A stretch of DNA of 64,000 nucleotides from Selaginella moellendorffii (Eukaryota > Plantae > Lycopodiophyta): positions 1,850,330-1,914,329 of the forward strand of contig NW_003314283.1 in NCBI RefSeq assembly GCF_000143415.4. Direction: 5' to 3'. Shown here piece after piece: positions 3,139 through 47,755 of the stretch (the stretch's first letter is position 1; each line of letters begins with the position of its first letter). A program made the position numbers and the translations under genes. The notes under the pieces were generated by a model. It was not told where the DNA came from, made no database searches, and saw only the letters and a program-made list of their open reading frames with translations.

Positions 3139-3449
3139 CTATGATAATGACGTTATTGAAGTTCAACAACTAAACACAAGAGTCCAGACTCAGGAAACCA
3201 TTTAGGAGATGCCAAATCCAAATACTGTTGAACCAGAGGAAATTGTACAGGAAATTCCAGCATAAGAAATTCCATTACCTGCTCCTCACAACCCTCGAAG
3301 GGGCCGTTGTGAAGCCTTTCATGAGAGTAAGGACTTTGATTTAGAACATTCTTTTATTCATTCTTGACTTCACTTTTTTTTTAATAGATGTTGTAGAGAG
3401 CAGCTATCAATCTTCTTGGCGGACTAAGACATTCTTCCCATCCCTCCCT

Positions 3450-3728
3450 ATGGCTACAGATGATGACCTGGAAGAGCTCTCCTTTGCAGCTATGCATAAA
3501 CAAGTTAGTAAGCATGAATTTTATCTCCAACTTTTAGTTCTAGTAATTGATTTTCCGATTCGCCCTCTATCCCCAACGGCCAATGTTAGGGAAGTTGCTA
3601 TTCTCATTGGGGATTACATGCAGCTTTTAGATGCTACTAGTCAAGAGCTTTACATGCTTGATCGGTGGATCCATGGTCTGGGTCAACTCACACCTTATGG
3701 GAAGATCGGTTTCATCTTTTTCGATCTT
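3450..3728 (+). pseudogene. N-terminal half of a beta-class N4C/N6A DNA methyltransferase-like gene, split by the transposon insertion
   Basis: VAILIGDYMQLL (resembles ..GD.l..L) and KIGFIFFDL; the reconstructed empty site reads FIFFDLPDRMPPP, at the position of motif IV (vDli.tDPPY). Confidence 0.7.
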
Positions 3729-3755
3729 AAGCTCTATTTCGTTAAAGTGGGATTT
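3729..3755 (+). repeat. Left TIR of the Sola-like element
   Basis: aagctctatttcgttaaagtgggattt. Confidence 0.93.
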
Positions 3756-4388
3756 ATTCAGTAAAATGGGACTAGGTACAAATTTTCAAGTATTTGAAAA
3801 TGACGTGAAATTATATGTTTTCTATCCAAGGGCTAGACATATCTGGGGCATGGTGACTAGCGCGGTGACTTTGTGTCCAGACTGAGTCCATCTGGTTGTA
3901 TAATAAATCTCATTGTCAAGGTGAACAAGCCGAATCTAAAGCTAAAGAAGAGCGATGGCATGCGCGCACACACTATTTGTTTGTTCATTGAGCGTGTGGT
4001 GAGCTTTCCAAGATGAATGTCATTCCTATTAGCTAGACATATAACTTAATGGTGAGAACATTTAGATATTATTCAATGTTATCTTTTTCTAACGAATCAA
4101 ATTGTGAAGGTGTAGCAAGAGGCATTGCTAGTCTGGAGAAGTCATTTAACTCATTTGACCTTTAGTGTATTTTCATAAAACTAAATAACATTCATATTAT
4201 TAAGGAATTTCTCTAGTACCTTTTTTTTACGACATAGAGGCTTGCATTTCTTTCAAAGGTGATTTAGTAAAAGGCCTGAGGGCACATGCCATTCTATTTC
4301 TCAGACCGGTATTAAAATATACTAGTGCAAAGGGAAAAAGGTATTTGGTGATCAAGTAAATGGCATGAGGGCACACGCCATTATAAGC

Positions 4389-4661
4389 CTAAGCGCTAGT
4401 GGACACCTCCTTTTTGGTACTCTCAGCGGTACTATCATCCTTCTCCGGGTCAGTTGTTTTGCTTTGGATTGTTGTCTCTGACGTTACTGGGGCGTTCTCG
4501 ATAGTTGTTAATATTGCCGTTTGTTCAAAAAAATAATCACCTGGAGTATAGTACGGGGAGTTTGGAAGACTTATATATTCTACATCTTCACCTATCTCCT
4601 TCTCCGTTTCCTTTTCTGCCTCACTTACAGATTTTGTGCTTGCCTTGAGAACGCTCTTCAC
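4389..4661 (-). CDS. Small unknown cargo ORF/exon (SLPxSxYYTPG motif)
   Basis: Protein-level similarity to ORF 25928-26272: SLPNSPYYTPGDYFF vs SLPQSLYYTPGTYYLF; NAPVTSETTIQS vs NAFVTSETIVQS. Confidence 0.55.
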   Translation of the reverse strand: MKSVLKASTKSVSEAEKETEKEIGEDVEYISLPNSPYYTPGDYFFEQTAILTTIENAPVTSETTIQSKTTDPEKDDSTAESTKKEVSTSA

Positions 4662-5359
4662 CCTAAAATATGGAGTTCATTGTGTTATAAAAGGAAACCA
4701 ACACACACGCTGCAAGGGAATGATGGTACATAAAGCACGTAAGCCCACAATATGGGTTTATGTGCCATTAATATGGGCCACACGCCATATTATTAGATTT
4801 ATGCACGTGTGATTGGTAAATGCATATGTCACATCATCTTTGTTTTACCTCACACATTATATCAGGCCTAATGAACCATATCACATATGCGCACATGCTA
4901 TATATATGGAGAAGTATTATGCAAGGATAGAAAAATTCAATGCATGATTGTGGAGAGCAATGGCATGAAGCCACATGCTAAATAACATTTTAGAGAAAGA
5001 ATTAAAATAAAAACATGCAAACAGTACTGAGTGGACCAAGACTTAGAAGTGCACAATTGAATGAGGTATTTCTAATAAATATTTCACTCACCTCATATAG
5101 GAATGGCTACCACTCTCAAATGGCGTATTGCCTCATGCTATCACCTCGCAATTTGTTATAACAATCTGATGAATTCATATTCGGCTTGTTCACCTTGAAC
5201 TTTAAGTAAGATTTGCTAGAACAACTAAGAATTTATACTTGTTATTTGTATCATCTCACCTAGGAATGGCGTAAGGCCACATGCCATCACACCTCCTCTG
5301 ATTCAGATTCGGATTGTTCACCTTGAAATAAAATACATTAGAAACTTAGTAAAGGAATA

Positions 5360-8185
5360 TTAATGAATCTCACCTTGAACCCGGGTTATGAATGCTCTTG
5401 CTGCATCTCTTGCATGGTCTGGCAAGGTGATGGTGGCACTCTGCTTCCGCATCCAACCATGCACAACATTATCCACCGATATGCTCATGTTGGGATCCCT
5501 TGGATTCAGCACCCATCTCTTTTCTAGGCAATCCTTCGTATATCCGGAACTTGGCTTGAACCACTCCACAGTTACATTGAAGGAGTTAGTTTCCACATCC
5601 TCCTCTGCATCAGTGATGCAGCGCCCCACCCATATCATTTGTTTTTTATTACTAGGTCTGACAAGCACGACCATTCCTTTGCAGACCTGTACTGGATTGA
5701 ATGCTGAATCCGGCTTCTTGTTCCTCGGCCCACAATAGTGATCCTCAACATCGTTATCTGTCACTGCATTTCCAGAGGACATTGTTCCGCTACTATCTGG
5801 TGCTCTGGGTTCTGGCCAAAAGGACTCTTCCAATTCTTCATATACAACCGGCCCATTTTGGATAGCAGATATAATCTTCTCCCAGTATTTGAGCAAAGGC
5901 TTGCACCTCTGAAAATAGGATTCTCCACCAAACACCAACCCCCTCTTCCAGAAGGCAATATGCTGTCTAATCCTGGCCACTATACTTTCCTGGTCTTTGA
6001 GTCCATCCGGGTGCATCGGCCGTGGGGAACCCTGAGGAATCATAGGTTCCCCAGTTATGGGATCTCTCTTGAAGAGTTCAATGTCGTCCACTGGCAGCCA
6101 CACTGTATCCCATTCTCTCATCTTGTACCTCATCACTGGAGCACTGTCACGCATGCTGAAATGAAACTGAAGAGGCTTGGAGTGGCCAATCAGCGTTTCG
6201 GATCCGTCCCTGATGTAGCCTCTTACAAACCCCTTAAAGTCTTGAACCTCTGTCAGAAGTGCAGCTTCAATAGTGCCTTTGATGCAATTTTGGAATTCAT
6301 CGTAGAGTTGTGGGAGGGTGAGGACATTGGATCGCCGGAGGGACTCTGCCAGGTGACTGAACATGGCATCGACGTCTTCATGAGTGTGCCGAACCATGAG
6401 AAAGCCAAGTGTAACCGTTTCAAATATGCATTTGGCAACAAGCATCGCCAAGTACGCGAAGACGTACATGTTTTTGTTCTCACTGCCAGCATTGTCTGTT
6501 TGGAGCAGAAGATGGGGTGGAAGGCCACATCGGCCGCAAGAACTTCCTTGAGATTCTGCTTCGTTTGGATGAGGCTGTGCATTCACCGGGCGACCAGCCT
6601 CGTCGGAATGGCATGAGGCCTCACGTGATAACCCTACAATCTGACGGCCAACATATTCACTGGGATGGCATGGGGCCTCACGCGATACTGCAAGCCTTTG
6701 CTCCTCCTCCAGCTGAACCCTGTATGGGGTTTGATCGACAAGGGCCTTATGCAAGGGTTGGCCGTTCAGCTCAGTCTGCGCACTTTGCAGAGACCTTAAG
6801 TATTTTGCTAGGGACGCAATCATCATGTTTGCACCCCCGCCACCCCATAGAGGTACAAAGAAGTTCCCATAGTTCTGGGCACCATGCCCATGAGCGATTA
6901 TGCCAAACAGAGACACAGGCAGCTGCATGGATGAAGAGATTGCCTTGGGGGCAGGATTGAGTCGAGGTAAGCACGTCTTTTTCTGGTCTATTTTGTCGTG
7001 GATGATGCAGAGGTAAGAGTCAGGTCTCTCCATGGAGAGAATCCTGTTATGATAATATGCAGTCCTGCAGCTTCTTTGCTCGATGTTGTGGTCGAGCCGC
7101 CTTCTAACCAACGTCTCTCGCTCTTGAGCGATGCAAGAATTCTTCGACAAAGCCATTTTGATAGCAGTGCACTCGTCACACTTTGAAAAGCTGGAGTACT
7201 TTCCTATACTCACATTCCTGAACCTGTTGCTCCACAATCTACTAAATCTAGATTGGCTCAGCTTCCTGTAGCCATTACTCTGGAGTTCCCGATTCACATC
7301 TTCCAATATGGCCCTCTTGGTATACATGGAAGGGAGAACTCGTTGGGTGTCTCGTGTTCCATCTTCCAAGAGGCGGGTTTTATGTGGTTGCTGCTTGCTA
7401 CATGTCTAGACAAACCTCTTGAAGATTGCCTCTCCATATACAACATGACCCCTGGTTTTGTGAGTACCGTCGTTTCCATGGACTGCCTGTTGAACCCTTT
7501 GTTCCTCGAACTCAGTTTTGATTCTGTAGAATGTGGTTCGAGGGACTCCATAAATGATTCTCCATGCCTTCATGCAGACCAAACCCTTCTGGAAGACCAT
7601 GCCCCCCACCTGATGTTCTGAAGCATCAACAGATGACCGTAATGCCTCATACACAAAATTGCAAGCTGCCTTCCAGGACAATGTCTTGTATCTTGCTCTC
7701 TCCTCTTCAATAGCATCCCAATTAGCATGTTGACAGCACCTCCTCTTGCAACAAGCAACTGTCGAGACCATTCAAACCTCTATCGCCATTTTCTGCCTTT
7801 TCGGTTCGTTGCTCAGATCCCTTTGGCTGCGCTTTAGGAAGGTGTACTTTCTTTTCCCATGAAGAGATGTTCTGTCATTAGTTGTAGTGGTGTTTGATTG
7901 TGAATCCTTCACATTCTCAAACACTAAGTGCCTCAATTTCCACCGCACAATGCTTCCAATAGTCAGACTATTTTCTTCTGTGTCAACAACCTCTAAAATC
8001 GCAACTCCAATATCATCCCAGCCCAATTCTTGATTAGCAACCACATCTCTTGGATCGACAACTGTGGCTAAGCCCTCAGCTACCACCTCCCCCTCGTGGT
8101 TGTTTAGAAACACCTTTGCCTGAATCCATATAGCACGGTTCTTAAGATCCACGGAGGGAAGATGTGTCGCACTTGCAGAGGCCAT
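5360..8185 (-). pseudogene. Sola1-like DDD transposase (~940 codons, two in-frame premature stops) with an N-terminal Tnp1/En/Spm-like beta domain
   Basis: ORFs 7772-8185, 7406-7771 and 5360-7369 share one frame; motifs SKCDEC, IIHDKIDQKKT, LQTDNAGSENKN, GFLMVRHTHEDVDAMFS; N-terminal VVAEG..VDP..V..LG; splice acceptor just upstream of 8185. Confidence 0.85.
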
Positions 8186-8373
8186 TCTGAAAGTGCAGAA
8201 AAGAAGTTAAGACCATACAAAAAATGATTGGAGAATGGCCTAAATCATAACATACCAAACAACCTCAATAGCATGAGGCCACATGCCATTATTCAAACAT
8301 GCTATTGACACCCACATGAAATTTTGCATTCACAAAATTGGCATGAGCCCTCATGCCATTAGTGGTACCACTA

Positions 8374-8565
8374 ATGGCATGAGGCCTCACGCTATCTTTG
8401 GCCCCTACTAGCCTATTGCTATATTCCTTTCGCCTTGCTGCAACTGTATATATTTTTGTGTGCGTGATTAGTCACCCATACAAAAATATATACAGTTGCA
8501 GCAAGGCAAAAGGAATATGGCAATAGGCTAGCAGGGGCCAAAGATGGCATGAGGCCTCATGCCAT
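8374..8565. repeat. ~190-bp foldback (inverted repeat) whose arms end in the 22-bp palindrome
   Basis: atctttggcccctactagcctattgctatattcc...tttttgt pairs with acaaaaatatatacagttgcagcaagg...ggggccaaagat; centre gtgattagtcac. Confidence 0.93.
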
Positions 8566-10622
8566 CTTGATATACACACAGCTGCAGGCAAGTAAAAACA
8601 TACATGACAATACGCTAGCCATGAAATTGCAAGGGCCCAAGATGGCATGTGGCCTCATGCCATTTCTAAATGTGGTCCTAAGCCATTCCATGGTGAACAT
8701 ACCAGGAAGCACAAGTGCCGAATATCAAGAGGAAGCGGTAGCCACACCAAAGACAGTGCCGCTCGCAACACCGCAACTGCTCGTAGCGCCGCTCGCAAAA
8801 ATTGCCACTCGCATATACTGCCGCTTGCAATGGCGCTCGCAATGCCGCAACCGCTCGTAGACGCATAAACCACAGCTCACAACGCTGCTTACACAAGCAG
8901 CGCTCACTGCGCTCAGCGGAACCAAGAACACAGCGCACAAAAATGATAGACCTAGGAATGAGTTCGAGAATTCAAAAATAACACACGCTTGAACGTCACA
9001 TCAAATCCTCTGACAAACCAGATCTTATAATTCCTCTGACAAATTTCAAACTGAGTAGCTTCTAGACTTTGCTGTCGGAGGTTGAACTTTGTCACATCAT
9101 GTCCTTGCCTCGATCCAGCTGTGCATGTCAGTGATTCGAACTTTGCCATGCCATGTCAGCGATCCGTGCCAAGATTATTCGCCGTGTAAAGGAATAATTA
9201 TGTTGTGTGTGTACGTCCATTTATGGCAATATAAGGCCACACGCCATTCAAAGAATAATGCTAGTCGAGCATTTTTTGGTGCATTTTTGGGTTCAAAATT
9301 GCATGAGCCCACACGCTACAAAGTTTACCTGTACCAAAAATAGAAACAGCTTTATTTACTTGGGAATTTAAGTGGTTGAGGCATAAACCATAAACCATAA
9401 ACCATAGGACCATAAACACATTTCAATAGAGAGGGTCCTTTTATTTCATACCTCGTTACGTAGATCTTGGTGAAACCAGAGTTAGTGAAGTTGGTTTCTT
9501 GTGATCCCGCATGTGATTGTGATGTCCCTTTGCAGTGTCGATGGAAAGGTCAATGCACACCAAACTGTAGAATTTTGGAGCAAAATAACGGTCGGATCTA
9601 TGGCAAATGCCCCTGAAACATTGTAAGGCTCGTGTGGTCTCATGTGGTGTCCGATCGAGATGCTTCTTTGCAGGGTTATCAAGAAGGACATTATATACCA
9701 TTCTTTATTTAGCTGAACATCTGGCATTTTTGGAAATACAAGATGCTTTGGAATATCCAATCATGCATGGTATAAATATAGCGAGGGTATTAAATGATAT
9801 CCCAATCATGATCTTTCTTTTGGATTTCGTGTGCATGCAGTCCGAGGAATGATGACGTTGCGGATTTCTTTTGGATTTCACGTGCATGCATGCGCGCGGC
9901 GATCTAGAAATTAATGGTGGCGCCCAAGTCTGAGGAATGATGACGTTGCGGGATTACCAACCGTCGTGACATTTCGTGCGTGTGAGGTTAGGTTTTGCAT
10001 TTTGCTTCGTACTCGCGCTCGCACACTCGCGCGTGTGAGGTTAGGTTTTGCATCGTACTCGCGCTCCCACTCGCGATCACGCTCACATTCGCGCTCATCT
10101 ACCTTCTCTACAGGTTTCTCGTGTGCATCGGCGTCCACTCGCGCTTGCATCACACTCGCGCTCGCATCGCGCTCCTGTGCATCGGCGTCCACTTCAAGAC
10201 ACACCCAGTTTGTAACTTCGCCGCCAACTCCGCCGCCCACTCTGCCACCCACACGCAGCCCACTTGGCATCCCGGGAGATTTCAGCGCCACTCTCCAACT
10301 ATAAGTGGCAGAGTAGCCTTGCTGCTACGATCCGCTGCACACACAGTGCACATTTGCTAGCGAGTCCGGCCTCGATTGTCACGGCCTCCATTCGGCTTCA
10401 AATGGTAAATCTTTTAGGCCAAGTAGAAAATGGCATGAGGCCACATGCCATTCAGTAGCAACATTGGCATGCACCGATTGGGCTCTCGAGTGCAGTCCGG
10501 TTACAGATGGCGTGTAGCCTCACGCCATCTTAGGATGCAGCCTCAAGACATCTGATGCAGTGGTGAATGGCGTGTGGCCTCACGTTATTTCCAGCTACTA
10601 GCTTTTCATTTGTCAGCTCTAA

Positions 10623-13200
10623 TTGTTGTGCATTTCTGAACAGGCGAGGAATTGCGTTCTTCTTCCAGCCACTGTCAATGTGGATGCAGAGAAGGGGGAG
10701 GAGCTCACCAGTTGGACTTTCGGGATGGAAGGCGAGGATCTGAGGCTGTACAACACAGATGGTGGGAGAAAAGAATGCATGGGGATCCTCATCCAAGTGA
10801 CAGACACTCCATGCAGTTCCATGCAAGAATATGGATTGGCACTTGTGGTACAGACAACGTCCGCCTTCAATATCCACCTTGCACATTCTAGCGGCTTCCC
10901 GGAGGGGGGCAGCGGCTATGAGGAATTCCTAGAGGGAGCTAGGGAGAGGTTGTCCAAGAGGCCCACAATTTCAAAGACGCTGCGGGTCTATGAAGATCAC
11001 ATGGAATCCACGGACCTCACCTACGGCGATGTTCAAAAACTATATTCCAACATTGAGCCGTTGAGAGTGCCTCCAGTTTGCGAAGCGAAGGGGAAGGGGG
11101 TCGATCTGGAAACTACCCCGAAGCAGAAAAGGGTGGTCAAGCTCAAGCCGACGTCTGACTCTCCTGCTCCAAAAAAGAAGCTACTTGGTGATGCCATTGC
11201 CTCGGGTTCGAACACTACACCCACCAAAAAGAAGAGCCGCAAAGAGCAAAAAGAGCAAGAAGAGGCAGCAAAAATCGTCGCAGATAATAGTACTTGTTAC
11301 TATTCCAACAAAGTATATACAATCGACGTGAGCCATATCGACATCCAAAGCAAATACAACCACAGGCTAGTATCTGATGAGTGGGTGGAGAAACTGAAGC
11401 AGAAGATGCTGGCAAGTCCAGTAAAACCCGACATCGCAGACGTGATCCCCTACTACCGAACAATGAAGGGCGAGACGAGGTTTCCAGACTTGATCAATAG
11501 GAAGGTGTTGGACGATCAAAACATCCGGTTCTATGCCGACTCTAGGCAACATTCTAGCTTGGCGATGCAAGAGATAGTTGTGGATATTATGGTGGGCGAG
11601 GAGGTGAAGAAAGTCTTCAAGACAAGAGTTGTCCGCCTGATAAAAGGCAACTCGCCCCTCCGATCTATCATATACATCTCCCACGCGCAGAATGTCAAGC
11701 AAGAAACATGCTACAAATCAGGTCTGCACGAGACATTGGCACAAACACGGAAGCTCTGGGTTCAACTGAAGAAGCCACAAAAACCAGGACAAGGACATGC
11801 ACTATCAACTAGCGCCTGGCAGGTAAGCCTCGTTGCATGTGGCATAGCATGTGGCCTCACGCCATTTCCATTGCAGGAATTCTCGAGTCTTCTCTCGAAA
11901 ACACTGGGGGTCAATGACACACTTAGCATCCATAACATTCTACTCGCGACAAAAGTTGTTTTTGACAAATGGGTAGATGTGCTGAGGAGGTACCATGACG
12001 GGGAGTTGCTAAACTCAATGGGTGTGGAGGATGGCCGAAAGCCCAATGATTTGAAGCTCAACGCCTTGCGTTTCTCGCGGTCTCTAGACGACGACGACCT
12101 TCTGACAGTGGCTAATGCTCTTCTACGTGGTGAAGTAGTCTTCAACAAGACCAAAATGACTCCCGGCCATATTATGACATACGAGGACTTGTGCACGACT
12201 CTGAGAGCTCGTGCGCTATTGAAGGATTGGATCTTCGAGCAAGTGGCCATGGAGAGGGTGAGCATCGACACCACACAAGAGATGATGGAAGAGCTGGAGT
12301 TGTCAAATGAAGACATCGACGACTACGTGAAGGGGGCCCCCAAGTTCATCGATCTGCTGCGGGATGCCACGAAAAGTAAAGCTGAGAAGTTGGATCAGTA
12401 TCCAAATTTCATTAAGAGGGATGTCGACCGCCGGCTTCAGAAACAGCTCGACCCCGCAGCAGAGGCCTATCGAGAACCTTACCGGGTATACGTGAATTCG
12501 GATGAGGATCAAAGGTGGAGGAGCATCGTTTCCCGCGGAGATGAGCAGGTCAAGAACATCTTTTGTGTGATGGACTTCACAAACGAGGAGATCACTCATG
12601 CAGACGAAGTCAGCTCCATCATTGACTTAATGGTGGGACTTGCAGAGGTGGAATCTTCAGTCCACTATATGATCTACGACTCCGAATCCTATCACAAGTT
12701 CTGGAAGGCCTTGAACGAGGTGAAGGCTCGGTTGAAAGGCAAGAAGATGCAAGAGATCCATGGGATAATGGCTAAGAAGAAGATACCGACGAATGTCCAC
12801 ATCTTCACACTCGCCCTTGTTATTGGTCCTGCAGCAAAGTGGGACTGGAGTGACTTCCCAGCTTTGTTCGACAAGGCCGATCGAATTGATCTGAGGGAGG
12901 TCAGTTTACCCGTGCCTGAGGAACTGAAGACGGCTATAGAGCTTTCGAATCCAGAGAAAGCTCCAGGTGCAGCATGGAAAATGCTCAGCTGGGTCTTCAA
13001 CGCAATAGCGGGTGGGTCACCTGCTTCCGACTCCAAGGGCAAATGCGTTGTCGAGTACAACTGCGGCGGACTATTATTTCGAGCCGCACTACTCAAGGGT
13101 GTCCCGTATGTTGCGGTGACAAACTCCATTGAAGAAGTGACTTCAATGGAGCATATAATTACAGTTGCCAAAGAAAAACAGTATCTTCTTTGCGAACCTG
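10623..13200 (+). CDS. N-terminal exons: ParB/sulfiredoxin-like domain plus amino-methyltransferase-like C-terminal region
   Basis: TIDVSHIDIQSKYNHRLVSDEWVEKLKQKM...FYADSRQHSSLAM resembles ParB-N (R....V..L...; G.HR..A); GKCVVEYNCGGLLFRAALLKGVPYVAV resembles VLDPF.GSG....AA...GR..IG. Confidence 0.6.
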
Positions 13201-15168
13201 GTGAGTACGCACTTTAAGTTTAAATGTTATCTCACAAGCTCTGTATGCAGGAGCGTGGCCACCCCCAGATGCTGAAACGGCGTTAACAGCTACTGTTGAA
13301 GATACCCATGTTGGGCCGAGCTCACAACCTGCACAAGGTAAGGTCACGTGAGGCCTCACGCCATTTTGATTATAAATCGTTGTTAATATTCAGACACGAG
13401 GACTGAAAAGCGCACTGGTGGCGCGTAGAAGAAGGACAAACAAACAAGCAATAGGAAAAAAGGAGGTACAAATTATATTTGCAATGGTGTGTGGTCTCAT
13501 GCCATTCCTTGCAGGAGACACTTCTTCAAAGGCAAAACAGGCAAGCACCAGCCAAGCTCAAACTGACAGTGGTCATAAAAAGCGAAAGCACGTTGGACAG
13601 TCATCGGGATCAGAGGCATTTGATTCGAAAAGGAAGAAGGGCAACGAAAAGATGATAGGTAATGCCTCGCGGTTATGGCGTGTGTGCTCATGCCATTCAT
13701 TGCAGATCAAGGGCTGAGTGAAAGCAGCCAGTCACCACCTCCTGACTCAGATTCCTATGGCGGACTCCCCTTCCCCAATCTCAATGGAGAGGTACAATGA
13801 ATGAAGGATGCTTTTCAAGTCAGGGCCACGTTTTTCTCATCTCGTCGTCTTCGAAGGGTGCAAGAACGTGCAGAAACCATGTTAAGACAGTCGGGTGAGG
13901 ATACGGTCCTAGGTTAGGCACTAAAACAGGCTATGGATGTCTTGTATTTTGAGATGGAGACTCGGCCAGATGATTTTCCCAAGATGGTCCTGGAAGAACA
14001 AGCCATCCAGCCTGAGCAGCCTATGGAAGAAATGCAGGAGGGGGATGAGGAGCCAGAGAAAGATAATGAGCAGGAAGAGCAGAAAAACGAAGAGGAGGAC
14101 AAAGAAGAGGAGGACGAAGAAGAGGAGGACAAAGAGGACTTGGATGGTCCTCACAATGGTGACGATCACAATAACGACGACGACGATGATGACGACGATG
14201 GCCAGCCTGAGGTGGCCAAAGAGCAGCGGAGGAAGGTCATACAAGACAAACCATCAGGTAAATAATAGTACATCCATTCCTAACCTTTTACCATTTCTAA
14301 CATTGTCCATGTAGATCGCAAAGCAAATGGTAAGTAGAGATTATTCAGTTGAATTAAGATACAAACTCTAGCCTTTAGTGTCGAGGAAGGATAGTGCCAA
14401 GCAAGGGTCGAAACGTATGTCCAATCCTTCAGAATCAACAGTGCGCCCAAGTGATATCGGTCCTAGTTCCTCAATAGCAGTTGATGGTAAATACAATATA
14501 GTCGATTCAATGTGCTAATGAGTTTGTTTTTAGTAGCCAGTAGGGAGGATACCATCTCAATCGAAGGGAGATATTTGGACATGCATATGGATCCGCCAGT
14601 GGACTCTACTTGCCTGCAAGAGTCATCAGAGCTGGTGGAGGCTACTATCCATATCAACGCCAAGCAAGCTGACCACGCTCCACTTGATGCTGCCCATACC
14701 ACTGAGTCAATCTTGTCCACGTATCCAACTGACGGTGACCAGGCGCCATTGGACCCGCATAAGGCCGCCCCAACCGCCGAGCCGGTCGTATCCTCATTTC
14801 CAACGGACTCAACGTGTGCCCAATCGTCTGACTACGCGCCGTTGGAACCTCCCTACACCGCCCCTACTGCTTGTTTGGTCATGTCCACTTTGCCAACGGA
14901 GGCACCAGCTGAAATGGCGTGTGATCACACACCATCAGAACCACCCCATGCCATTGTTGAGCCAGTTGTACCAGAGTCTACAGCTGAAATGGCATGTGCC
15001 CACACGCCATCGGATGTGATTGACCCCACATTGCAGAGGAGAGTATTTCCACCCTTCACGTTTCCTCGACCAAAACCCTCTCAATGACCATCGGGAGCAC
15101 CATTCGCTAATATTGTAGATGGTAAAATTGACTTGTACCATTTTTTATGTTGACGCATTTCATTTCAG

Positions 15169-16031
15169 AGTCACGGCGAAGGTACTGTATCGTTTTTGAT
15201 CTGAACGGTGTCCTTTTCTCCCATGAGCGTGGCTCGTCCTCGAATGTCACTTCACCCTCCAAAGCCTGCGGTCGCAAGTTGGTCAAAAGAGACAGATTCA
15301 CATTAATCACACGGGAGAAACTGCGGGATCTAATAATGACCATGCGACACTTAAAACAGAGGGCCGGGTTCAATTTGCAATTGGGAGTTTGGACATCCAT
15401 GATGCACCACAATGCATTAACGTTGCTACAGATGATGCACGATCAAATGCGAGTAATATTACCATTTGACTTTCTCCTAACACAGGAGGATTGCTTGACT
15501 ATGGTCCATGTGAGGGGTAGCAAGCCCATCTTCGTCAAGCCAGAGGCTGTAGTGATGAACTGGACTGCTAGGTCAAGTGAAATCCTCATCATTGATGACT
15601 CGCCGATTAAAACTGCAGCGAACATGCACACATATGCAGTGCACCCCATCTCTTGCAGTATGGAAACTAGGGAGAAGAAACCATATGTTCTGGGGGACCT
15701 TGCAAAACGGCTTGGAGCGATGGTGATAGAGAACCAGCCAGTCCAGGAGGTGGCTGCAGAAATCAACCAAATGGCAGATGGAACGGTATATCAGAAGCCA
15801 TTTGATCGGACAGACACCAATCATCATTTATGGCATGTATATTGTCTAGCCAAGCACTATCCGCATCTCCATAATCTGCTCAACCGGATGGGTTCTTCGA
15901 CCACTGAACATGAGCGTGGACGTATTAGAGAAGAGATGGCATTACTATTGGGTTTAAATCCTGATAGTGTGGAGAGTGATGAAATTCCAAGATTATTGTA
16001 TAGGCGTTGGAGGCAAAAAATAACAGTCTGA
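15169..16031 (+). CDS. FCP1/NIF-type HAD phosphatase-like domain (terminal exon)
   Basis: CIVFDLNGVL, LGVWTSMM, LLTQEDC, KPIFVK and ILIIDDSPIK..AN are hallmarks of the plant FCP1-homology (NIF) family. Confidence 0.85.
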
Positions 16032-16446
16032 GATGGCATGTATTTATTTTAAAATGTAACTTATTATGGCATGGGGTTCCATGCCATTGTATTAATATTA
16101 AAAGACAATTCTTTGAGAGGATTTGCATTATACTAGAAGTGTTACAGCATGTTATTGGAAGTCTACGAAGTTGTTTTATTAATAAGGGGAAAGTAAAGAT
16201 TGAATGGGGACTTGGGCTCCACCTAGACTCGGAGCAACTGAGCCAATATTAAAAGGATGGAAAGAAATTGGACGACGATGACAAAGAGAAGAGAGAGGTG
16301 AAGCAGTGGCAGGGGGAGGAGAAGTGATTGAGTAGACATTTCCTTGTTTAAAATAAAATGGCATGTGCCTCAATGCAGTTGAATTTTGTTATATTTATAT
16401 ACTATATAAAGGTTTGGAAACCTTATTTTACAAGTGGGATAATGAC

Positions 16447-16473
16447 AATTCCCACTTTAATGAAATAGAGCTT
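16447..16473 (-). repeat. Right TIR of the Sola-like element
   Basis: aattcccactttaatgaaatagagctt, reverse complement of the left TIR with 2 mismatches. Confidence 0.93.
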
Positions 16474-16477
16474 TCTT

Positions 16478-17101
16478 CCCGATAGGATGCCACCACCGCA
16501 AGGGGATACTCTATCATGGAGTGTGTTGTAAGCCCAACACATTTCCCAAGCCTTAAAGGTTGCGAGCAGCTTCATGACTTTTGAGGGTGTGGTTGTCATG
16601 ATCCTTCCCCGCTCTCTAATATGGAAAGGCCTTCTCGCACACTTGGCTGACAACAATGATGGATTTATCGAGTTTTCATCTAGTTGCCTTCTTTCGAGTA
16701 TGGTGGTGGACACAAAAGACACTAGTGGGCAAAAGCAAAAGGTGTGTGACTTCTTTATTTAGAAATTAACTCTATTCTTTTTTTTTTTTTTCCAGGTTTA
16801 TTCCTGGAACTACCATGCTCTATGCCACATTGGGAACCGGCGTAATACCATACAAGCTGATGAGTGTGCTGCTCTTGCTTTACTAGGATATGACAGCTCT
16901 ATAGACATCATCCCAAATGTGATTGACTTGGACATTCTTCACCCAGCATTCCTTGGTTATCGACATCGTTCGGTCACGGCCATGCAGATCTTGTTGGAGT
17001 TATTCTGTCCACCAAAGGGGATTGTACTTGATGCTACAGTAGGATTTGGGTCAATGGTACAGGCAGCGAAAGAGACAGGCCGAGAAGCAGAAAAAGATTG
17101 A
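16478..17101 (+). pseudogene. C-terminal half of the beta-class N4C/N6A DNA methyltransferase-like gene
   Basis: HRSVTAMQILLELFCPPKGIVLDATVGFGSMVQAAKETGR corresponds to motifs X/I of N6_N4_Mtase (KP..L...LI....G..VLDPF.GSG.T..AA...GR); one intron (~16742-16796) and a stop. Confidence 0.8.
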
Positions 17102-17366
17102 ATATATTCTGATTTTAATATAAGTTATGTGGTTTAATATATTATTTTCTTTCTTTGTAGACTAAAAGATTAGTTCATGTCGAACTAATAATCTACATGA
17201 GCTTATGGAATACCTTAAACACCTAGATTTTATGTTAAAAATTCTTGGTTCGAAACAAACTAAGGTAGTGCCATTAAACTTTCACTTGTTAGGGGATTGT
17301 ATTGACTTCTTTTGACTTTTGTTGACTTTTATTGACTTGAGCTCAGCTCAAAAACTACCCAGCCCC

Positions 17367-20300
17367 TGCCATTGCTAACGAATCTCACCACCTCCCATTC
17401 TGCCGAAGCATCTAGACCTCCACTCCTCTAGCTGCCTCAATTTCACTTGCTCCTTCAGGATGGTGTAATGAAGCTGCACTACTACAAGAGTGAGTCTCCA
17501 CCACAATGCCACCACCATCGATATCCTTGCTTGTTGCCCATAAAAGTGGCAATGGTTTTGTGCCTCCTAGAGTGCTTGCACTTCTGTCACTCTCCAGATG
17601 GACCAGCGCTCATGGCCCATCGCCTCCCAAACTAACATCCCGACTTCAGCCCCTATTGCGTCCCACTAGACCCAACTTCAACCCCTATCGTACTACTTGA
17701 ATCCTGCCCTTGACTTCATCATCCGTCACTATCGGCATGACCTGTTTATCTCCTGCTGGCAGCTGCATGTCGCCTCTCATAACCCGACAAGGACGCCCAA
17801 CATTCTGTTTTGGGGACACAATGAACCACACCTCCACATCACCATCCTCCCAAGTTGGTGTTGGGGCTGCAAACACCCGTGTCTAGGCCCCCAAGCTGAT
17901 GCGTTCCCTGTTTGGCTCCACGTCCCATTATAGAGCCACAACGTCTCCAGGTTTGAGACAATGCCTAGGCCAGAGCTGCCCTTTCTTCACCTCACTCACT
18001 GCTTTGATGATGCGAAGAAGATTGAGGTGGACTTTCCTCCACCATCCTTGGTTAAAGACTTGCATATGCCTTGTAGTCTTCCTCCTATCCTTGTCTAGAA
18101 CTCCCACCAGTTGCTTGAGGGTTCTGAAGCCTTCGCCATGCAGCTTTCTCCAGATTGTGTAGTGGTCTTCCCTACCCAATGTCTTGTCATCCACTTTGAA
18201 GAGGTCATTGAAGAATAGGGGTTGGTTCAGCCAGTCCTCCACTCGCCCTGGCATTTCCCTACTGACTAGAAACTTGCTCCATAACCTGAGAAACCCTTGA
18301 ACCAGTGTGCCCCCCTTGACTACTTGCTTCGGCCCTTCAACAAACAGCCAACGTGGATCCTTCTCCCATGGTGCCTAGTGTTGTGCCTAGGTCGAATTGC
18401 CAACAAACTCTGCCTAAACATGAGTCTTTACCTAGTTGAAGGCCCATAAGGAGGATTTTGTACCGTAGTGCCTTTGCCATGTTGCTCGGATCAATAACTC
18501 CAAGTCCTCCCAAGACTCGTGGACGTGTTGTGGATTGCCATGCAACCTTGGCCATGATCCTTCCTGTGACAAGCGCACCCCACCACACATACTTACGAAC
18601 CATCATGCGTACCTTTTTAAGAGTGCATTCAAGGACATGCCAGATTGAGAGGTGGTACCAAATGTTGGGCAGAATGATGCTCCTAGCTACAACCACTCTC
18701 ACTAGCAAACCAAGTTTCTGAGGAGCCCACTTCTGGATTAACATTTGTATCCTTCGGAGCAAGGTGTCATCTTGAAGTGTTGCATTAAACTGGGTACCAA
18801 CCTGAATCCCCAAGTACCTAGTGTCCTCTCTTGGTTTGAGCTACTGGAAGTCGATGTCTTGGCCCCATGACTCAATGCTTGGCTGCCCCTAGTTGATGCC
18901 CACTGATTTGTTCCAGTTGATTGCTGCGCCAACTGCGAGGTTGAAAGTCTCCAGTGCCTTCTTAGCTGCATCTAGGTTCTCCTTTGTTGCGAGGAGGAAC
19001 AAGGCCGTGTCATCTACAAATGCTCCATCCAGGAGTTCCTGAGTCACCCTTGCTATTCTTGGAAGTTGCTGTCTCACAGCTGGTAGGGTGAGTTCTTTGA
19101 TGCACCCACCTTCTGCTAGAAAAGTGCCTAGGGCCTTAACCACAAACCACTCGTGGGGGACACACTAGGGAAGGGATGCACGCACTTCCACTGCCGCATT
19201 TTCCCTCTCTGCAGTCCACTACTGGGCTGTGTACAGCAGTTGGTAGAACTCCTAGGTGAGCTGCTGCATCCCTTGTTGATCCTCGATGACCCTCCCATCA
19301 TTGTGCTTCAGTCCCAGGATGGGAGGACAGTCAGTCATTGGCCTGATTCCCCTAAAGAAAGACTTGTTGAGAAGGCATTCATTTAGGGCCCATTCATCTT
19401 CCATGGCCCAGACACCCTTGCTCCACGCTACATACTCCAGGTCATGTAGCTTGGCTTCCTGTTCATCCAATACTACTTGCCACTTGTTCTCATTTTGTGT
19501 GTTCAGCAACATCCTATGCACTGCTGCCACCTTCTACCTGGCCAATCTCACGTCCTTCATCACTGCTCCTTTGAGATCCTTTTGGCATGCCCGGAGCTTC
19601 TGGGAGCAAGACAAGAGCATTGGGATCAGTCCCATCTTGTCTTGCACGAGGGTGTCATGTATTAGCCCAATCGTCACTAAGTCTCGCACGTTGCTCTTGT
19701 GATTGAGTGCTGGACTGTTGTCCCTTTGTTCCTTTGAAGCTTGATCACACTGCAGAGGGGGTCGTGATCAGAGAAGGAGGTGAAACCGAGCCACGTCTTA
19801 AGGCTTCCACCATCCTACCATATGCGAGTTGAGGCATAAATCCGGTCTAGTCTCAATTGGGAGGTCACTGACTACCGCCTCGTAAAGGGGTGAGCATGAG
19901 ATGCAAACCCCATTGCATGTTGGAGGTCCATGATCCCTAGTGCATCCACAAGCTGACTCCACTGCTCCCACTCACAAAGTAGAATTATTTCCTGCATTCC
20001 CTTGCAATTGCAGATGTCCTTAACCATGTTGAAGTCTCCTAGAACCAGCCATTCATTTGCTTGCCCTTGGGTGGATTGCAATATGCTCAGCCAGAATTCT
20101 GCACATCTCCCTTTCCTCATTGGTGCATAGATGTTGATTATCCCCACCCGTCTGAAGTGGAGATGAAGGACAAGCAACTGAGCCTTCCCCGGAACCAGGA
20201 CAATGTGGTTTCGTACCTGAGCAGACCATTTGGTTGAGACTACCACTGCTGTGCCACCTCCTGATCTGGCCACCACTTGCGTGGCTGGGTTCCACCAGAG

Positions 20301-23300
20301 CCATCCCCTCATGCCAAAGGTGTAGTCTGGGGCTTCGATCATTTTGTGCTCTTGCAAACATAGGATGTTGATGCCTCCTAAGCTGATCTCGCGGATGTGG
20401 GACTTGAGTTGCACCCTTTTGTTGAGTCAACTGCTGGTCCAGCTGAGTCCCCGACAGTTCCAAGTGACAGTCATAAGTGTTGTCATGGAGCCATGTACTT
20501 CCAATAAAATGAGGTGTTGTGGGGTCTTGCCCTCCATTCTGTGGAGATGGTCCACACCATAGTCATCTTCCCTCTATACTTTGTCCATGAGAAGCCTTGG
20601 ACAATGTATCTCGCAAAGCTTGTCCACTTCATGATGGCACTCTCCATGCATTTCTAGTAGTCGCCAATGGTGACAACCTCCGGGAAGGCTGTGTCCCGCA
20701 GCACATCAGCCAGTCTCCTACCTCTATGGAACTTAATTCCCACTTAGGTGGAATCCACCTGATTGCCATTCCTACTGTCTAAGGGAGGACCGGCTGGAAG
20801 CCATCCCCTTCAATGTCAATGATAGGTCCCTCAAACAGTTTGGGCTGCAAGGAAGAGCCCAAGAGTGGTGGGGGCGACCGGGAAGCGAATGTGTGGCATT
20901 TGGTCAGGAGGGCGTGCCTTCAAGATCTTCTCTTGCTTTTCTGGTAACTCAAACGGCTTCTGGGAGGCTAGCCTGTTCCACTTGACTGAGCAGGCCTCCT
21001 CCCGGTATCCAGTACTCTAACAAAAGTTACATCTAGGTTCCGAGTTCTCCATTTGGATCCTGATATACTAGCCCAGCACTACACTCTCTACCAGGATTTC
21101 AGCCGGGGCTGAGACAAAAACCTTGAGTTGGATGGGGCCAAGGACACCCTCTGCTTCTACAGTATCAAGACCAAGCACCATCTGGCTGATACTCCCTTCA
21201 ACCAGCTCCTGGATCACCATTGTGATCCGCATTTCATGGGAATGTCCCACAATGAAATGTTCACTGGAAAGCTCCCACGCTTGAGGCGTGCCTAGTCCTC
21301 GCTGTGAACCTCGGGATCCATGGGTGGAATGACACCACCCAATGCTCTTGTCAATGAGGCCATGCATGGCCTCCTTTTGAGACTGTGCCTCCTCTGTCTC
21401 AAAGACAACTGTGTAACAGCCCTTCCCATGTGGTAGCATCTTCTTCATGAGGATCCCCTGTCCCAACGTTGTATTGATCAAGTTGTTAGCCATGCAACCT
21501 ATTGGGAACTTCCCTCTGAAAATTGCAATCAATGCCTTCTTACGGAGTTCCTCTTCCTTCTCTACCACTGCTCTTTGCATAGCCTCAGCTAGCTTCACAG
21601 GAATAGCCTTTCCTCTCGTGTCAACATGGACCAAGTCACTTTCACCTTCTCCTGCTGCTGCCACCTTGGGCACTTCTGCATGTCCAAATGTTTCCCCGTT
21701 CATGTTATGGGAGGCGTTCTTCTTGTTGCCATCACTATTCCCGTCCGAGGAGTGTAGTGCTTCTGCCACCTTTCCCTGGCCCCAAGTCTTCCCTGCTCTT
21801 GACTAGGCCTTTGCCACTCACTCAGACGTGTCAACCTCTTGGCACTTGTTCTCTTGCATACCTGTACTCTTATCAGTGGGGGCCTACTCCTCCTCGAGAA
21901 AGGCTTCAACTGTGTTTGTCCAGGATAGGCCCTCCTTGACAAGTCTCAGAGTTTTAAGTTTCTGCCATGTTGCTCGCTTCACTTTCTTCTTCTTGCATTT
22001 GGTCTTCCTCTTGTTGAAGATATCCCATTCCTGGAATTGAAGTGTCCCATCTGACTTTTCATCCAATGAGTGCTCGGTCTCTGGCTTTGTTTCTGGCTCT
22101 CCAAGTCTCACATCCTTTGTTGGTGTTGGTGCAACATCCAACTTGCCATCTTGCTCTTGTGCCCATGCATCAAACAGATCCACTTGCTGTGTGACCACTA
22201 CCTTCGTGATTAATTCCTGTGCTTCTCACAGTGCAGGTCCCAACACAAGGTCTTCTCCCAAAGGATTCAGGTCCAACTCTCTAGTCATGGACAGTAGAGT
22301 TGATTGGAGTTCTTTGGTCGAGCGGAGACCTTTGGATCCTTCCCTCAAAGTGGCAAGGGTCCCAGACCAACATCTCGGCCTCGTCAAGTCTTGGAAATGG
22401 AGAGGGGAGCAACACCTTCTGCCCCTCATATAGCACTGTGGGAGAGTCTAGGTCTGATTTCCTCTCTTGTGGCTGGTGTGCAAGGTCCACCTAGCATGCT
22501 TCCTCTTGCCTTCTTGCATGTACTGGGTCAGGGATGGGCCCATCCTTGTCTACAGGAGTCTCTGGGTGATATGGGGGGTTCCCACCAGCTGATGGCATGA
22601 GCTTGATGCATTCCCATGAGTAGGGAGTGTGCCAGTTGCCCAGTCCTTCTGTGTCTTGAGGTCCTTCGTTAGAATTCCAAGAGCTGCTTAACATGCATCC
22701 CACAGAGAGACGTTCCCCATGTCTTCCATGTCATCCATTTGGTGAGTTAGCTGCATGACTTCCTAATAGATTCGTTGTGTTGGATCACGATGCACCTGTT
22801 CCATGAACCTCTCACTATTCCAAAAGACTATACCACCACCTGCAAGCTTCAGCAAGAACAAGTGTAGACAATCTGTGTTGTCTCCAACCTGTCTTGCATT
22901 AGTGTAGAGCCTCGCCACTAGGGGCTGTGAGCTGGATCTTGGCCTCACACTTGAGGAACGAGCTGGTGAAGATGGGAGTGAAGCCCTGGGCTTGTTCGTA
23001 AGGTCTGACAAGCATTTGTGGGCAAACTTCAATGTCCGGAGTGGTTGTTCCTTGCTCGGCCCTAGGGCCACAACTGAACGGTCAATCTCCTTGGAGATCT
23101 CCTGGCCTTGGTTGTGTCTTTGAGTGAGGGATTGTGAACTCACCTTCTAATGAGACCTTCATATTGATCCTGCAGGACAGAAGCGCATCCACACTCGGGC
23201 CCTGTTCCTCCCTGTTTTTGGTCGTTCTGAGTGGGGGAGACTTGAGTTCTCCTGTCCCATGCCCTAGCTCTGCTGCTGCTGCATGTGCTGCTGCTCTGGT

Positions 23301-23890
23301 GGTGACTCCTAACCTAATCCTGGTGCACCGCTGCTGCACTTCTATGAGACATCCATCCCTATGAATCCCCTCAACTACAAAAGTGCTTGGGATGATTCCC
23401 CACAAGCCTTCCTAACTTGTGACTGGCCTGAGACTCTCACAAAGCTCCTGCACTCCAGCCAGTGACCATGCTAGTGGGTGAGGGGAGGTAGCTTTGTCCT
23501 CTCCTCCACTCTCAATGGCCAATTCGCCTCTAGCATGGCTTACACTTCCAGCTTTTTCCAGGACCTGGCCATCTCCCAACCTAGAAACGTCCACCACTTC
23601 TATCTCATAGTTCTTATCCTGTTGGGCTGCTACTTTGTGCGGCTCACTTGCTGCCTTGCACAGCAGTGTTCTGGCCGTTGATATAGAGGGCCCTTTCCCA
23701 TCCTAGCTTACTGCTGTGCATGTTCCAGGACCCCAACCTTGTAACAGTCCTCCTTGTGGGAGCCAAATGCTGTGGCCCCTACCTCACACTCCACAACCTT
23801 GAGAGCTTAGATTGATGGGCGTGGATGTTATGACTCCCTTGCAGCTGTTCTCCATGCTGCTGACAAGAGAGTGAATACACAACAGAACCA
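17367..23890 (-). mobile_element. Degenerate L1-type LINE (long ORF1 region with CCHC knuckle remnants; ORF2 with APE endonuclease and partly deleted RT)
   Basis: ORF2 start MTTLMTVTWNCRGL (~20486), ILCLQEHK, INIYAP, VLGDFN, AFVDDTALFL, INWNKS, GGLGV; many stops and frameshifts. Confidence 0.88.
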
Positions 23891-23914
23891 AAAAAAGGAG
23901 TACAATGTTTTGCC

Positions 23915-24194
23915 TAGGTATAATAGTTCCACTAACATCATACCCAACCTTATGGATGAGTAGATCTGTAACACGTTTCTAGGGTACTGATTTTGAACTT
24001 CATCGGCGATGCAAGTCTTGCTTGAGCTCTATTGCCCACCAGATGGTGTTGTGATTGATTGCACAGTAGGTAGCGGTTCTATAGTGAAGGTAGCATGTGA
24101 CTCTAGTAGGTCGGTGTTTGCTTTTGAAGAACATCATTTCTTCAAACACTGTATTAAAGGATTTTGTGAGTTCCCTCCATCCTCAAGGAGGTAA
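23915..24194 (+). pseudogene. N4C/N6A DNA methyltransferase-like C-terminal exon (diverged paralog)
   Basis: AMQVLLELYCPPDGVVIDCTVGSGSIVKVACDSSRSVFAFE. Confidence 0.8.
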
Positions 24195-25927
24195 ATTATG
24201 TTAATTAAAATTTCAATATATGTTTAATTCTATTTTATAGATCACAGTCACCTAGAGTTTTTAGAATTGGAGGCTTTGAAAGTCTCCCCAACTATGCAAA
24301 AACTTTAGCTCAACATATGCAAAGTGAATCTTCCCCACAATACCAATATAGGAGGAAGGATAAAAGAAATCAATATGTTGATAATGAGGTAGAAGAAAAT
24401 TAATTGCATCCTTACATAAAATGAAAAACTTATTATATGTTAGATGTTTATGAAGGTGTCAAATATCAATGAAGGTGTCAAATGTCAGTGAAAGTGTCAG
24501 TGTCAGATATCATAATTGTAAATTATCATTCTCACATATCACCATCACTTTGTAGCACTTGTGTGTTGCCATCTCCTCCTTCAACATTTTATAAACAATT
24601 GTATGTGATATGATAACATCTTCTAAAACAAAGTATGTTACCTACAACTAATATCATTTTATTATATTTTTTCGTTTAAAAGTAACAATACTATAGTATA
24701 GTAAAGTAGTTCTAAATCTTACATTCCACTATAGGGTGGCCTAAAAACCCCATATTTTGCATTAGCTGATACAATGTTTCCCAAGGGGATGTTATTTCCC
24801 ACAATGAAGTGATAGTAGGTATGTGTTTGTAACTCATTCTTGAATTTATTGTACATCCACATGTGCATATTTTTCAGACCCACCATTAGGCAATTGCTAC
24901 AGTGCTCAAGAAAAATTTATAAACTTATAGAGCCATTTGTCTTATCCAAGAAAAAGTAGCATATTGAACACCGAATGTAATAACATTCTGTGCTTTTAAG
25001 TAGTCCTGCCATATCAGAAGCAAGATCTTGCAAAAATATGTGACATTACTCTTGAAACACTAGAGGCAATCCCTCTCTAGTAGAAAAATCCAGAATTTTA
25101 TATATAGGGAGCTCTAATTTAGCTTTACTAGAGCCCTCAGCAAAAAAAAGATTGTTATGTGGAGGTGAAGGTAGAATGTTGGTAGAACTTAGGGATGGAG
25201 ATTGATATGAAATGCTAGGGGGCCAAGTACAAATAACAATGACTTTCCTTCGAGCTATTTCAAAACAAAATTCCAAGGAGCTCAAGGAAAACAAAAAAAC
25301 TATGATGATTATAAATTTTCTAGATAGTTTATATACCAAGTTTTAGTCTTGGGAATGAGGTTTATTTATTATGACACTGACAATACTTAGATTCTTTAAA
25401 TGTTAGTCTTGGAAATGGGGCTTCATAATCATAGCTTGCTTGTAAATATAAGAGAGTCTAAAATTTTAGATTATCATGTATACACATGCTCTATCATTAT
25501 GATGAAATCCTACTTTGCTACATATATATTCTTTTCTACACATGTCAAATGTCTAGAGAAATAGACTGCAAGGAAATATAGACTATATTATAGTGGCAGA
25601 GCACGTTAGCATGTTACCATTCTCTCATGTGAGATTGCCTTTCAGTCTTGGAAATGTAGATAAAGTTGATTCTTTGATATGATATTACTTTTGAGTCTTT
25701 TGAAAGATTTCGATTTCTTTTATTATTATTCACAAACAACTCCCAAAAACTTTTAATGAGGATTCACTACAAAAATAGACCTTAGTCTTATCATATGAGA
25801 GGATTGCGATATAGGTAGGAAACAGAGTTTTTGATATGAATTAATATGTAAATTACAAATGTCATGGAAAGTTTAATGAAGTAGATTTCTTGGTGCTTTT
25901 TACCGTGTTATTCATTTCTTCATTTCT

Positions 25928-33151: not shown

Positions 33152-34012
33152 TCATTGTGACTATTGATTGTGTTAGGCACCAAGTCAAAATAATAGGATA
33201 AAGAAAGGGCCCTACAATGAAGTGATCACCCCTTTAGTTAATTAGCTTAGGGTGTAAGGGATAGGGGATAGGATCCTAACATTGGTATCGGAGCCTAATT
33301 CGATTCTCGTGGCTGATGAGTGGGGCAAAAATATTCTGAAGGAATATTCAACATGGTGGATCTAGAGAGAGAACCAAAGTTTAGTAGACTCTAAAAGAAG
33401 AAATACCTAAGTATGTGTTAGGATCCTATCCCTTACACCCTAAGCCAATTGACTAAAGGGGTGATCACTTGATTGCAGGGCCCTTTCTTTATCCTATTAT
33501 CCTGACCTGGTGCCTAACAATCCTCCCCCTCGTCAGGAAATGATCGTCCGCGATCATACTTAGGCCACCATCCGGTCACCATGGTCCTTCTCTTAGGGTC
33601 TACCAAACCTTGGTTCTCCCTCTAGATTCACCATGTTGAATATTCCTTCAAAATATTCCTGCCCCACTCGTTAGCCACAAGAATCGAATTGGGCTCCGAT
33701 ACCAATGTTATGATCCGGCGCAAAAAGACAAAGATCTAGTTGCCCTAGACTATGTTACGCCACCTCTTGAGGTTCCTCACCACCCAACCACCCCCGAGCT
33801 ACCTCAAAAGCTCCACTGCACCGCCGCTCCATTGTGAGCCCTAGGGTAGGTTAAGTCCCTTACCCTAACATGCCTTAATATACCCTTGAGCCTCCCTTTG
33901 ACCGATGTTGACCATGTAGTCAAAGCTGGCACCTAACAATTCTTCCCCCCCAACAAAGTCCTTGTCCCAAGGACGAGTTGTACCGGTGATCACCCTTTCT
34001 GGGGAATCCTGC

Positions 34013-39324: not shown

Positions 39325-39600
39325 TGCAACCAACTGCTCCGATACCAATGTTAGGATCCTATCCCTTACACCCTAAGCCAATGGACTAAAGGGGTGATCA
39401 CTTGATTGCAGGGCCCTTTCTTTATCCTATTATCCTGACCTGGTGCCTAACAATATGATCGCAGACAATCATTCCCTAATAAAGGGAGAATTGTTAGGCA
39501 CCAGATTAAGATAATAAAATAAAGAAAGGGCCTTGCAATCAAGTGATCACCCCTTTAGCCAATTGGCTTAAGGTGTAAGAGATAGGATCTTAACAGATTG

Positions 39601-47675: not shown

Positions 47676-47712
47676 TTAGAGCCTCAGCTTTTTCCTATTC
47701 GGTTCCATATAG

Positions 47713-47755
<43 letters not shown>

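Follow-up and report, generated by a model that had tools for sequence, protein, structure and literature searches.

Arabidopsis VANDAL and Spm elements are the main known cases of transposons that counter silencing by means of dispersed motifs. In VANDAL21 of Arabidopsis, the VANC21 motif and VANC21 binding are placed, in the part of the report available to us, in introns, intergenic regions and terminal regions of the element (PMC5735166). For Spm/CACTA, the accessible text presents TnpA as an element-encoded, sequence-specific regulator with many cognate motifs, indicates that transposases can be such regulators, and locates TnpA motifs and binding mainly at the element termini (bioRxiv 10.64898/2026.08.24.746577). 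A third group, Sola, has 4-bp target site duplications (TSDs), terminal inverted repeats (TIRs) of 11-1124 bp and sizes mostly of 2-9 kb, with some over 15 kb, and occurs in non-seed plants such as moss, according to the available sections of PMC10741241, which also give TSDs of 7-12 bp for Mutator-like elements (MULEs). Here, we describe a 12,745-bp DNA transposon at positions 3729-16473 of a window of 64,000 nucleotides, which is the whole stretch of DNA analysed (Selaginella moellendorffii, assembly GCF_000143415.4, contig NW_003314283.1, positions 1,850,330 to 1,914,329 of the forward strand). The element carries many copies of a 22-bp dyad with the consensus ATGGCRTGWGGCCWCAYGCCAT, and on balance we favour the reading that this palindrome is a DNA recognition site for a protein of the element, kept mostly in non-coding sequence; at least one of the introns that hold it likely predates it, and in three introns its CTCAY arm is predicted to serve a second time as a branch point.

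The element is bounded by TIRs at 3729..3758 (plus strand) and 16444..16473 (minus strand), about 27-30 bp long and matching at 26 of 30 terminal bases, and by the 4-bp TSD TCTT on each side. Its ends read AAGCTC. Near 42,140, a paralogue of the flanking repeat continues without interruption across the corresponding insertion site. Contigs of set X3 cover the element at ~75-fold depth and ~98.5% identity, stop matching at 3731 and 16473, and then continue into other flanks; this depth, identity and change of flanks suggest a collapsed multi-copy family. The gene content consists of a minus-strand, DUF7869 transposase-like gene and a second gene on the plus strand, hereafter gene 2, and predicted coding sequence makes up 61% of the element.

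In its 4-bp TSD, its TIR of ~27-30 bp and its size of 12.7 kb the element resembles Sola, although the TIR and size ranges of that group are broad and not diagnostic. The accessible part of PMC10741241 mentions neither a multi-intron second gene with ParB-like, methyltransferase-like and NIF regions nor an element-wide palindrome. Sola transposases fall into the RNase-H-like groups Sola1, Sola2 and Sola3. We describe the element as Sola-like by its ends and do not assign it as a Sola member, its transposase being known by the DUF7869 match alone. With VANDAL21/VANC21 it shares, as far as the available text of PMC5735166 goes, the build of a large DNA transposon with a transposase and accessory gene(s), a family-specific non-coding motif, and local duplication. 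However, the VANDAL21 motif described there is 9 bp long and arranged in tandem arrays, whereas the 22-bp dyad stands mostly in single dispersed copies, and overlap with a branch point, predicted here, is unmentioned in that portion of the report. VANDAL elements have a Mutator-like transposase, whereas this one has DUF7869 and a 4-bp TSD, and no VANC homology was seen. In the VANDAL/VANC system, the motif is bound by an accessory protein that reduces methylation. In contrast to the terminal TnpA motifs, copies of the dyad run through the whole element. CACTA elements have CACTA termini and a 3-bp TSD, from which the AAGCTC ends, the 4-bp TSD and motifs not clustered at the termini all differ. 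By analogy, the element may work like VANDAL/VANC and Spm TnpA while being a member of neither group. PMC4455052, PMC5751038, PMC6839031 and PMC9033089, each available in part, served as classification background only.

Allowing at most three mismatches, the consensus gave 44 strand matches (22 sites), compared to 0 in 100 shuffles, and a matrix scan found 26 copies, compared to 0-1 per shuffle (10 shuffles). All 26 copies lie within the element, between 3955 and 16087, and none elsewhere in the window. Twelve are in predicted introns, 4 in coding sequence and 10 in untranslated (UTR), intergenic or subterminal sequence, which leaves 22 of 26 non-coding; 4 of 26 in a predicted coding fraction of 61% corresponds to p about 2e-6. 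The intronic copies comprise five in a 516-nt 5′-UTR intron of the transposase (8187..8702, minus strand, predicted from splice signals only; copies at 8268, 8338, 8374, 8544 and 8642), three in a 239-nt first intron of gene 2, and four in tiny introns of the same gene. Seven of the nine copies in gene 2 thus fall in predicted introns (binomial p about 8e-7), under an intron model that was drawn with the motif in view. Outside introns, seven copies stand downstream of the transposase (3955, 4271, 4360, 4880, 4960, 5120 and 5266, within 3955..5287), two are coding in a variable linker of the transposase (6608 and 6665; 6608..6686, minus strand), two are degenerate and intergenic (9226 and 9298; 9226..9319), two are coding in a low-complexity exon of gene 2 (14914 and 14989; 14914..15010, plus strand), both reading CACAC rather than CTCAY, and one lies 3′ of gene 2 (16066..16087, plus strand).

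The initial annotation had tied the motif to tiny introns "largely filled" by it. This was overstated, as the 22-mer makes up 39-47% of each of these introns, and five of the nine tiny introns of gene 2 (47-57 nt) have no copy. Three tiny introns at the 3′ end of the transposase, including one of 52 nt at 5322-5373 (minus strand), are motif-free as well, with the motifs sitting in neighbouring predicted 3′-UTR exons. The proposal that introns act as slots for binding sites finds support once it is broadened, in that copies avoid coding sequence, but any non-coding space is used. The motif is an element-wide non-coding feature and is not intron-specific.

Gene 2 (10402..16023, plus strand) has 11 predicted exons and encodes about 1,650 amino acids, with four in-frame stops in this copy. 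Removal of ten GT-AG introns gives a single frame from the ATG at 10402 to the stop at 16021-16023, broken by the four internal stops. The four motif-bearing GT..AG segments reported initially were all found, each with one copy: intron 2 (11823..11876, 54 nt; copy at 11844-11865), intron 4 (13338..13393, 56 nt; copy at 13343-13364, near the 5′ end), intron 5 (13466..13514, 49 nt; copy at 13484-13505) and intron 6 (13659..13705, 47 nt; copy at 13675-13696). The respective copies stop 11, 29, 9 and 9 nt short of the 3′ end of the intron, in agreement with the statement that three stand 9-11 nt from it. Two further copies, at 10430 and 10567, had been assigned to GT..AG slots of their own, but random 22-nt placements in gene 2 fit a loose 45-60-nt test in 69% of cases and a strict one in 17%. 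Both fit better, with a third copy at 10507 unlisted earlier, inside one 239-nt intron (intron 1, 10405..10643, phase 0). The remaining five predicted introns are motif-free: intron 3 (13201..13250, 50 nt), intron 7 (14258..14314, 57 nt), intron 8 (14330..14378, 49 nt), intron 9 (14487..14533, 47 nt) and intron 10 (15122..15168, 47 nt).

Introns 4, 5 and 6 are phase 1, intron 4 contains three in-frame stops, and retention of any of the three would stop or shift the frame. In an X3 contig representing a sister copy, sense codons were present at 3 of 3 compared stops of the spliced frame, while 0 of 34 stops in the two other frames changed and none was gained (Fisher p 1.3e-4); three of the four gene-2 stops fell in the compared stretch, for which 40 of 42-43 differences were displayed, and the stop at 15085 lay outside it. 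This rescue of the model frame supports the three frame-shifting motif introns. Intron 2 is phase 0, in frame and stop-free, so that homologues were needed to judge it. The S. moellendorffii homologue P0019 reads REWQ|EFESF, matching the spliced SAWQ|EFSS at this junction, and P0010, from the same cluster, has two residues different there. Three homologous open frames, P0013, P0014 and P0017, terminate at the donor with WKV(G)*. Three others, P0012, P0016 and P0018, start just past the acceptor, and the cluster-mates P0030 and P0033 start ..LQ|SF at the acceptor. In the DNA of locus L001, WK is followed by a 101-nt phase-0 intron at the same position and then by SFVE, aligned gap-free to the next gene-2 exon. 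The intron position is common to homologues of 19-32% identity.

From these comparisons of sequence, we consider the gene-2 introns very probably spliced. It would be possible to argue that some segments are not introns, and notably that 11823-11876 is an 18-residue coding insertion, since it forms part of an 864-codon open frame, keeping that frame and adding no stop, and no junction reads were found. The splice sites of this segment, however, fit the consensus at both donor and acceptor, its junction is the exact point at which homologues are joined or broken, the other three segments shift the frame, and the model frame alone is rescued, which makes such an interpretation extremely unlikely.

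Motif insertion had also been put forward as the event that created the introns. This fails at 11823, the sole testable one of the four: the position is old, and the L001 intron, which is 80% A+T, has a best motif match with 8 mismatches, so that an orthologous intron without the motif exists, at one locus of 24% identity; this is an outcome that the initial annotation had itself named as counting against its idea. By this comparison, it is very likely that the 11823 intron was not made by the motif. For the three phase-1 motif introns, at 13338, 13466 and 13659, the relatives compared contained no homologous sequence in which to trace them, and an introner-like insertion providing a branch point beside a proto-acceptor could draw on the branch-like CTCAY of the motif and on the ending ..CCATT..TTGCAG shared by three introns (nominal flank p 0.006-0.09). 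But TTGCAG also ends the motif-free intron of L001, and a motif-free control pair scored p 0.008, while the 5′ parts of the three similarly built motif introns were not significantly alike (p 0.09-0.89). Intron borders shared 1-2 bases, or 4 in one case (GCAG), with no shared duplication and no inverted ends. Motif-bearing or motif-free, all eight predicted introns within 13201-15168 have phase 1, and each of the seven exons that separate them has a length divisible by three; L001, too, has a predicted intron after its methyltransferase-like region, phase 1 by eye. The uniform phase points to one motif-independent origin of these introns. Creation by the motif therefore appears very unlikely. 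We also considered, and rejected, a shared ancestry of the motif introns that would extend past the motif itself, flank likeness not being above controls. Compared with introners as described in the available part of PMC9860276, the introns here are likewise short and share a repeated, partly inverted sequence, but the similarity does not span the intron from end to end, there are no TSD or TIR borders (optional in known families), a single element is involved, and the testable position is old rather than a new one absent from homologues.

The branch-point consensus is YTNAY, and positions 13-17 of the motif read CTCAY, which is branch-point-like. Among the tiny gene-2 introns without the motif, YTNAY places its A at -17 (CTCAC, intron 3), -15 (CTAAC, intron 7), -16 (CTAAT, intron 9) and -16 (TTGAC, intron 10), with no such sequence found in intron 8 (4 of 5). 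The A of the motif lies at -18 in intron 11823 (CTCAC) and at -16 in introns 13466 and 13659 (both CTCAT); the first two contain no other candidate, and the third contains no other upstream of -8. Random placement would put the A at branch distance in three of four introns with a probability of about 0.03. Of the 12 intronic copies, 10 have the T of CTCAY, compared to 5 of 14 others (p 0.02). We give roughly an even chance to the CTCAY arm doubling as the predicted branch point in these three introns, and such an overlay would explain the 9-11-nt offset before the AG.

The initial annotation had also raised the idea that the hairpin regulates splicing. In the form considered here, the motif would act in RNA, masking the branch A or the 3′ splice site and so regulating gene-2 splicing, possibly under an element protein. 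Stems reaching the acceptor were obtained on folding introns 13466 and 13659 (z -1.59 and -1.72; matched by 13 and 8 of 200 shuffles), the predicted branch A would fall inside the stem, and the frame is stopped or shifted when 13338, 13466 or 13659 is retained. On the other hand, 11823 and 13338 fold no better than shuffles (z +0.45 and -0.55), and 14 of 26 copies are outside predicted introns, some of them intergenic. The non-Watson-Crick arm pairs over the 26 copies comprise 18 G-U, 20 A-C and 9 other; the lack of a G-U preference is as expected of a DNA dyad or of methylation decay. The hairpin thus received little support and seems quite unlikely.

Judging from the confinement of the copies to the element, their avoidance of coding sequence and the lack of a G-U preference, we consider it likely that the dyad is instead recognised in double-stranded DNA, with either the transposase or the gene-2 product binding as a dimer, which would keep the whole element recognisable for anti-silencing, activation or transposition. 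In the mechanism we propose, such a dimer would bind along the whole element, motif copies would multiply by local duplication, and they would persist in non-coding space, where no protein change is incurred. In introns of ~50 nt, the easiest fit may be to lay the motif over the branch site, fixing it 9-11 nt before the AG, a step that could equally well hold or fail.

A simpler account would be neutral spread, with the motif a harmless by-product of local duplication or gene conversion that binds nothing and whose branch role is incidental. Duplication of intron, exon and motif units is indeed visible at the 3′ end of the transposase, as a tandem unit (5373-5260 and 5259-5092) with an inverted copy near 3885-3977; coding avoidance is expected from purifying selection on the proteins alone, and the structure predictions pointed to no binder. 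However, the 22-mer is kept amid unrelated flanks in most copies, across 12 kb and in both gene arms, four copies are retained in coding linkers, and 0 of 26 copies occur outside the element. Given these observations, we regard neutral spread as unlikely, and recognition as DNA by a protein of the element remains our preferred reading.

Several points weigh against this preferred reading or parts of it. Intron 13338 does not fit the branch overlay, with its motif A at -36, and the branch case consists of four introns, a short degenerate consensus and post-hoc p values of 0.02-0.03; the bias towards the T form could reflect orientation relative to the element arms. Intronic copies alone have 8 G-U and 4 A-C pairs (p 0.39). 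Orthology concerns one of the four introns through one DNA locus at 24% identity, and L001 could bear a different motif of its own. Two structure predictions of element proteins (pLDDT, a per-residue confidence score, 43.6 and 41.0) and Foldseek identified no binder. Additionally, no spliced joint was seen at any gene-2 intron in three raw RNA runs and three contig sets guessed to be RNA, and exons had no real coverage in the raw runs; this check covered 7 of 23 listed runs, with the raw RNA runs X9, X10 and X11 used at about 12% of each. No RNA set was listed as a match to gene 2. Coverage in these three consisted of a shared 40-nt patch and a low-complexity patch only, X2 and X20 gave scraps, and X1 contigs, which may be DNA, were unspliced across introns 1 and 10. 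The absence of junctions arises because the gene-2 family is not expressed in the runs examined, and we did not count it as evidence either way.

More tentatively, a single 5-base stretch might have two readers, an element protein (possibly the ParB-like/methyltransferase-like product of gene 2) recognising it in DNA and the spliceosome using it as the branch site of 47-54-nt introns. If so, any erosion of the sites by host silencing would also disrupt splicing of the gene that encodes the regulator, and the overlap would show how a minimal intron can accommodate a regulatory DNA site that splicing keeps in place. The two roles are one base change apart, since exonic copies already use the non-branch form. 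Our data suggest that the anti-silencing design of VANDAL and Spm elements recurs in an unrelated superfamily, probably in a non-seed plant; here the site is a long dyad, and we have not found its accessory protein described. No description of the family, or of an overlap of branch point and binding site in a transposon, was found in the literature searched, whose coverage mostly leaves aside subscription papers.

The domain order of the gene-2 product is a ParB-like region, a helical domain, a degenerate methyltransferase-like region, a low-complexity region and a NIF/HAD domain. Its relatives share a DGQH/SGQH motif in the alignment, in a region that we take to be ParB-like, and the C-terminus matches NIF. 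The L001 product weakly matches N6_N4_Mtase (E 0.0011), and a profile search of PDB gave a weak match to RsrI methylase only (E 0.06). Foldseek with the two low-confidence structure predictions returned no match at E<=0.001. A HMMER search for homologues gave 9 matches, 7 of which were used; P0011 and P0015 were dropped as repeat-driven, P0015 after a check and P0011 judged from its sequence. The named homologues are from Selaginella moellendorffii only. Word-based homologue searches with gene 2 gave no match, and pattern matches were confirmed in 0 of 343 cases in a scan of viral contigs and in 1 of 239 in a scan of metagenomes. As a lead only, the language-model look-alikes of P0001 residues 225-620 are fungal clusters that contain DUF3723 (score 0.96). 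DUF3723 is an accessory family of Starship elements.

The shared 40-nt patch lies at 10298-10337, where ~170-180 X9 RNA reads and contigs of X1 and X3 match this patch only and diverge on one or both sides; it may be a captured fragment of a host gene or a footprint of the element in an expressed gene. X3 differences look strand-biased in gene 2 (11800-14600), with 27 G>A and 6 C>T on the plus strand, 13 of them in CHH context, and in the minus-strand transposase (5900-7500) they are mostly of the opposite bias, among the rows shown. In both genes, it is the antisense strand that decay by C>T would affect.

In this copy, the predicted transposase gene (5287..8185, minus strand) is interrupted by two in-frame stops in its N-terminal part. 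DUF7869 is its sole profile match, and nothing on this family was found in the literature searched. A 192-bp near-perfect hairpin (94-nt arms, 93%) occupies 8374-8565 between two motif copies inside the 5′-UTR intron, and is possibly MITE-like (a miniature inverted-repeat transposable element) or a source of small RNA. At 8176-8179, at the start of the transposase, X3 has 245 extra letters, with a loose end of X1 at that point as well, an insertion polymorphism among copies. Downstream of the transposase, two plus-strand GT..AG segments were seen by eye, at 4259-4304 (46 nt) and 4341-4399 (59 nt), each with one motif copy in the non-branch orientation and with no supporting gene model.

The element has inserted into a repeated gene with short introns, at 3150-3728 and 16474-17270, which resumes near 23900-24300. 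By eye this target presumably encodes an N4/N6 DNA methyltransferase, a family label that a scan has not confirmed. A paralogue at about 41570-43110, 25 kb off, is 82-84% identical, uninterrupted and decayed. Elsewhere in the window, a minus-strand, intronless open frame of 611 codons at 47676-49511 gave no Pfam match at E 0.01. The flanking repeat is broken by a decayed element resembling a long interspersed nuclear element (LINE) at about 17270-23900 (minus strand) with an endonuclease match. Related repeats with long GAGATGGAGTCC-type arrays, together with several open reading frames of Ty3-type retrotransposons, occur at 1-400, 1480-2140, 28970-29460, 33000-39600 and 50000-64000.

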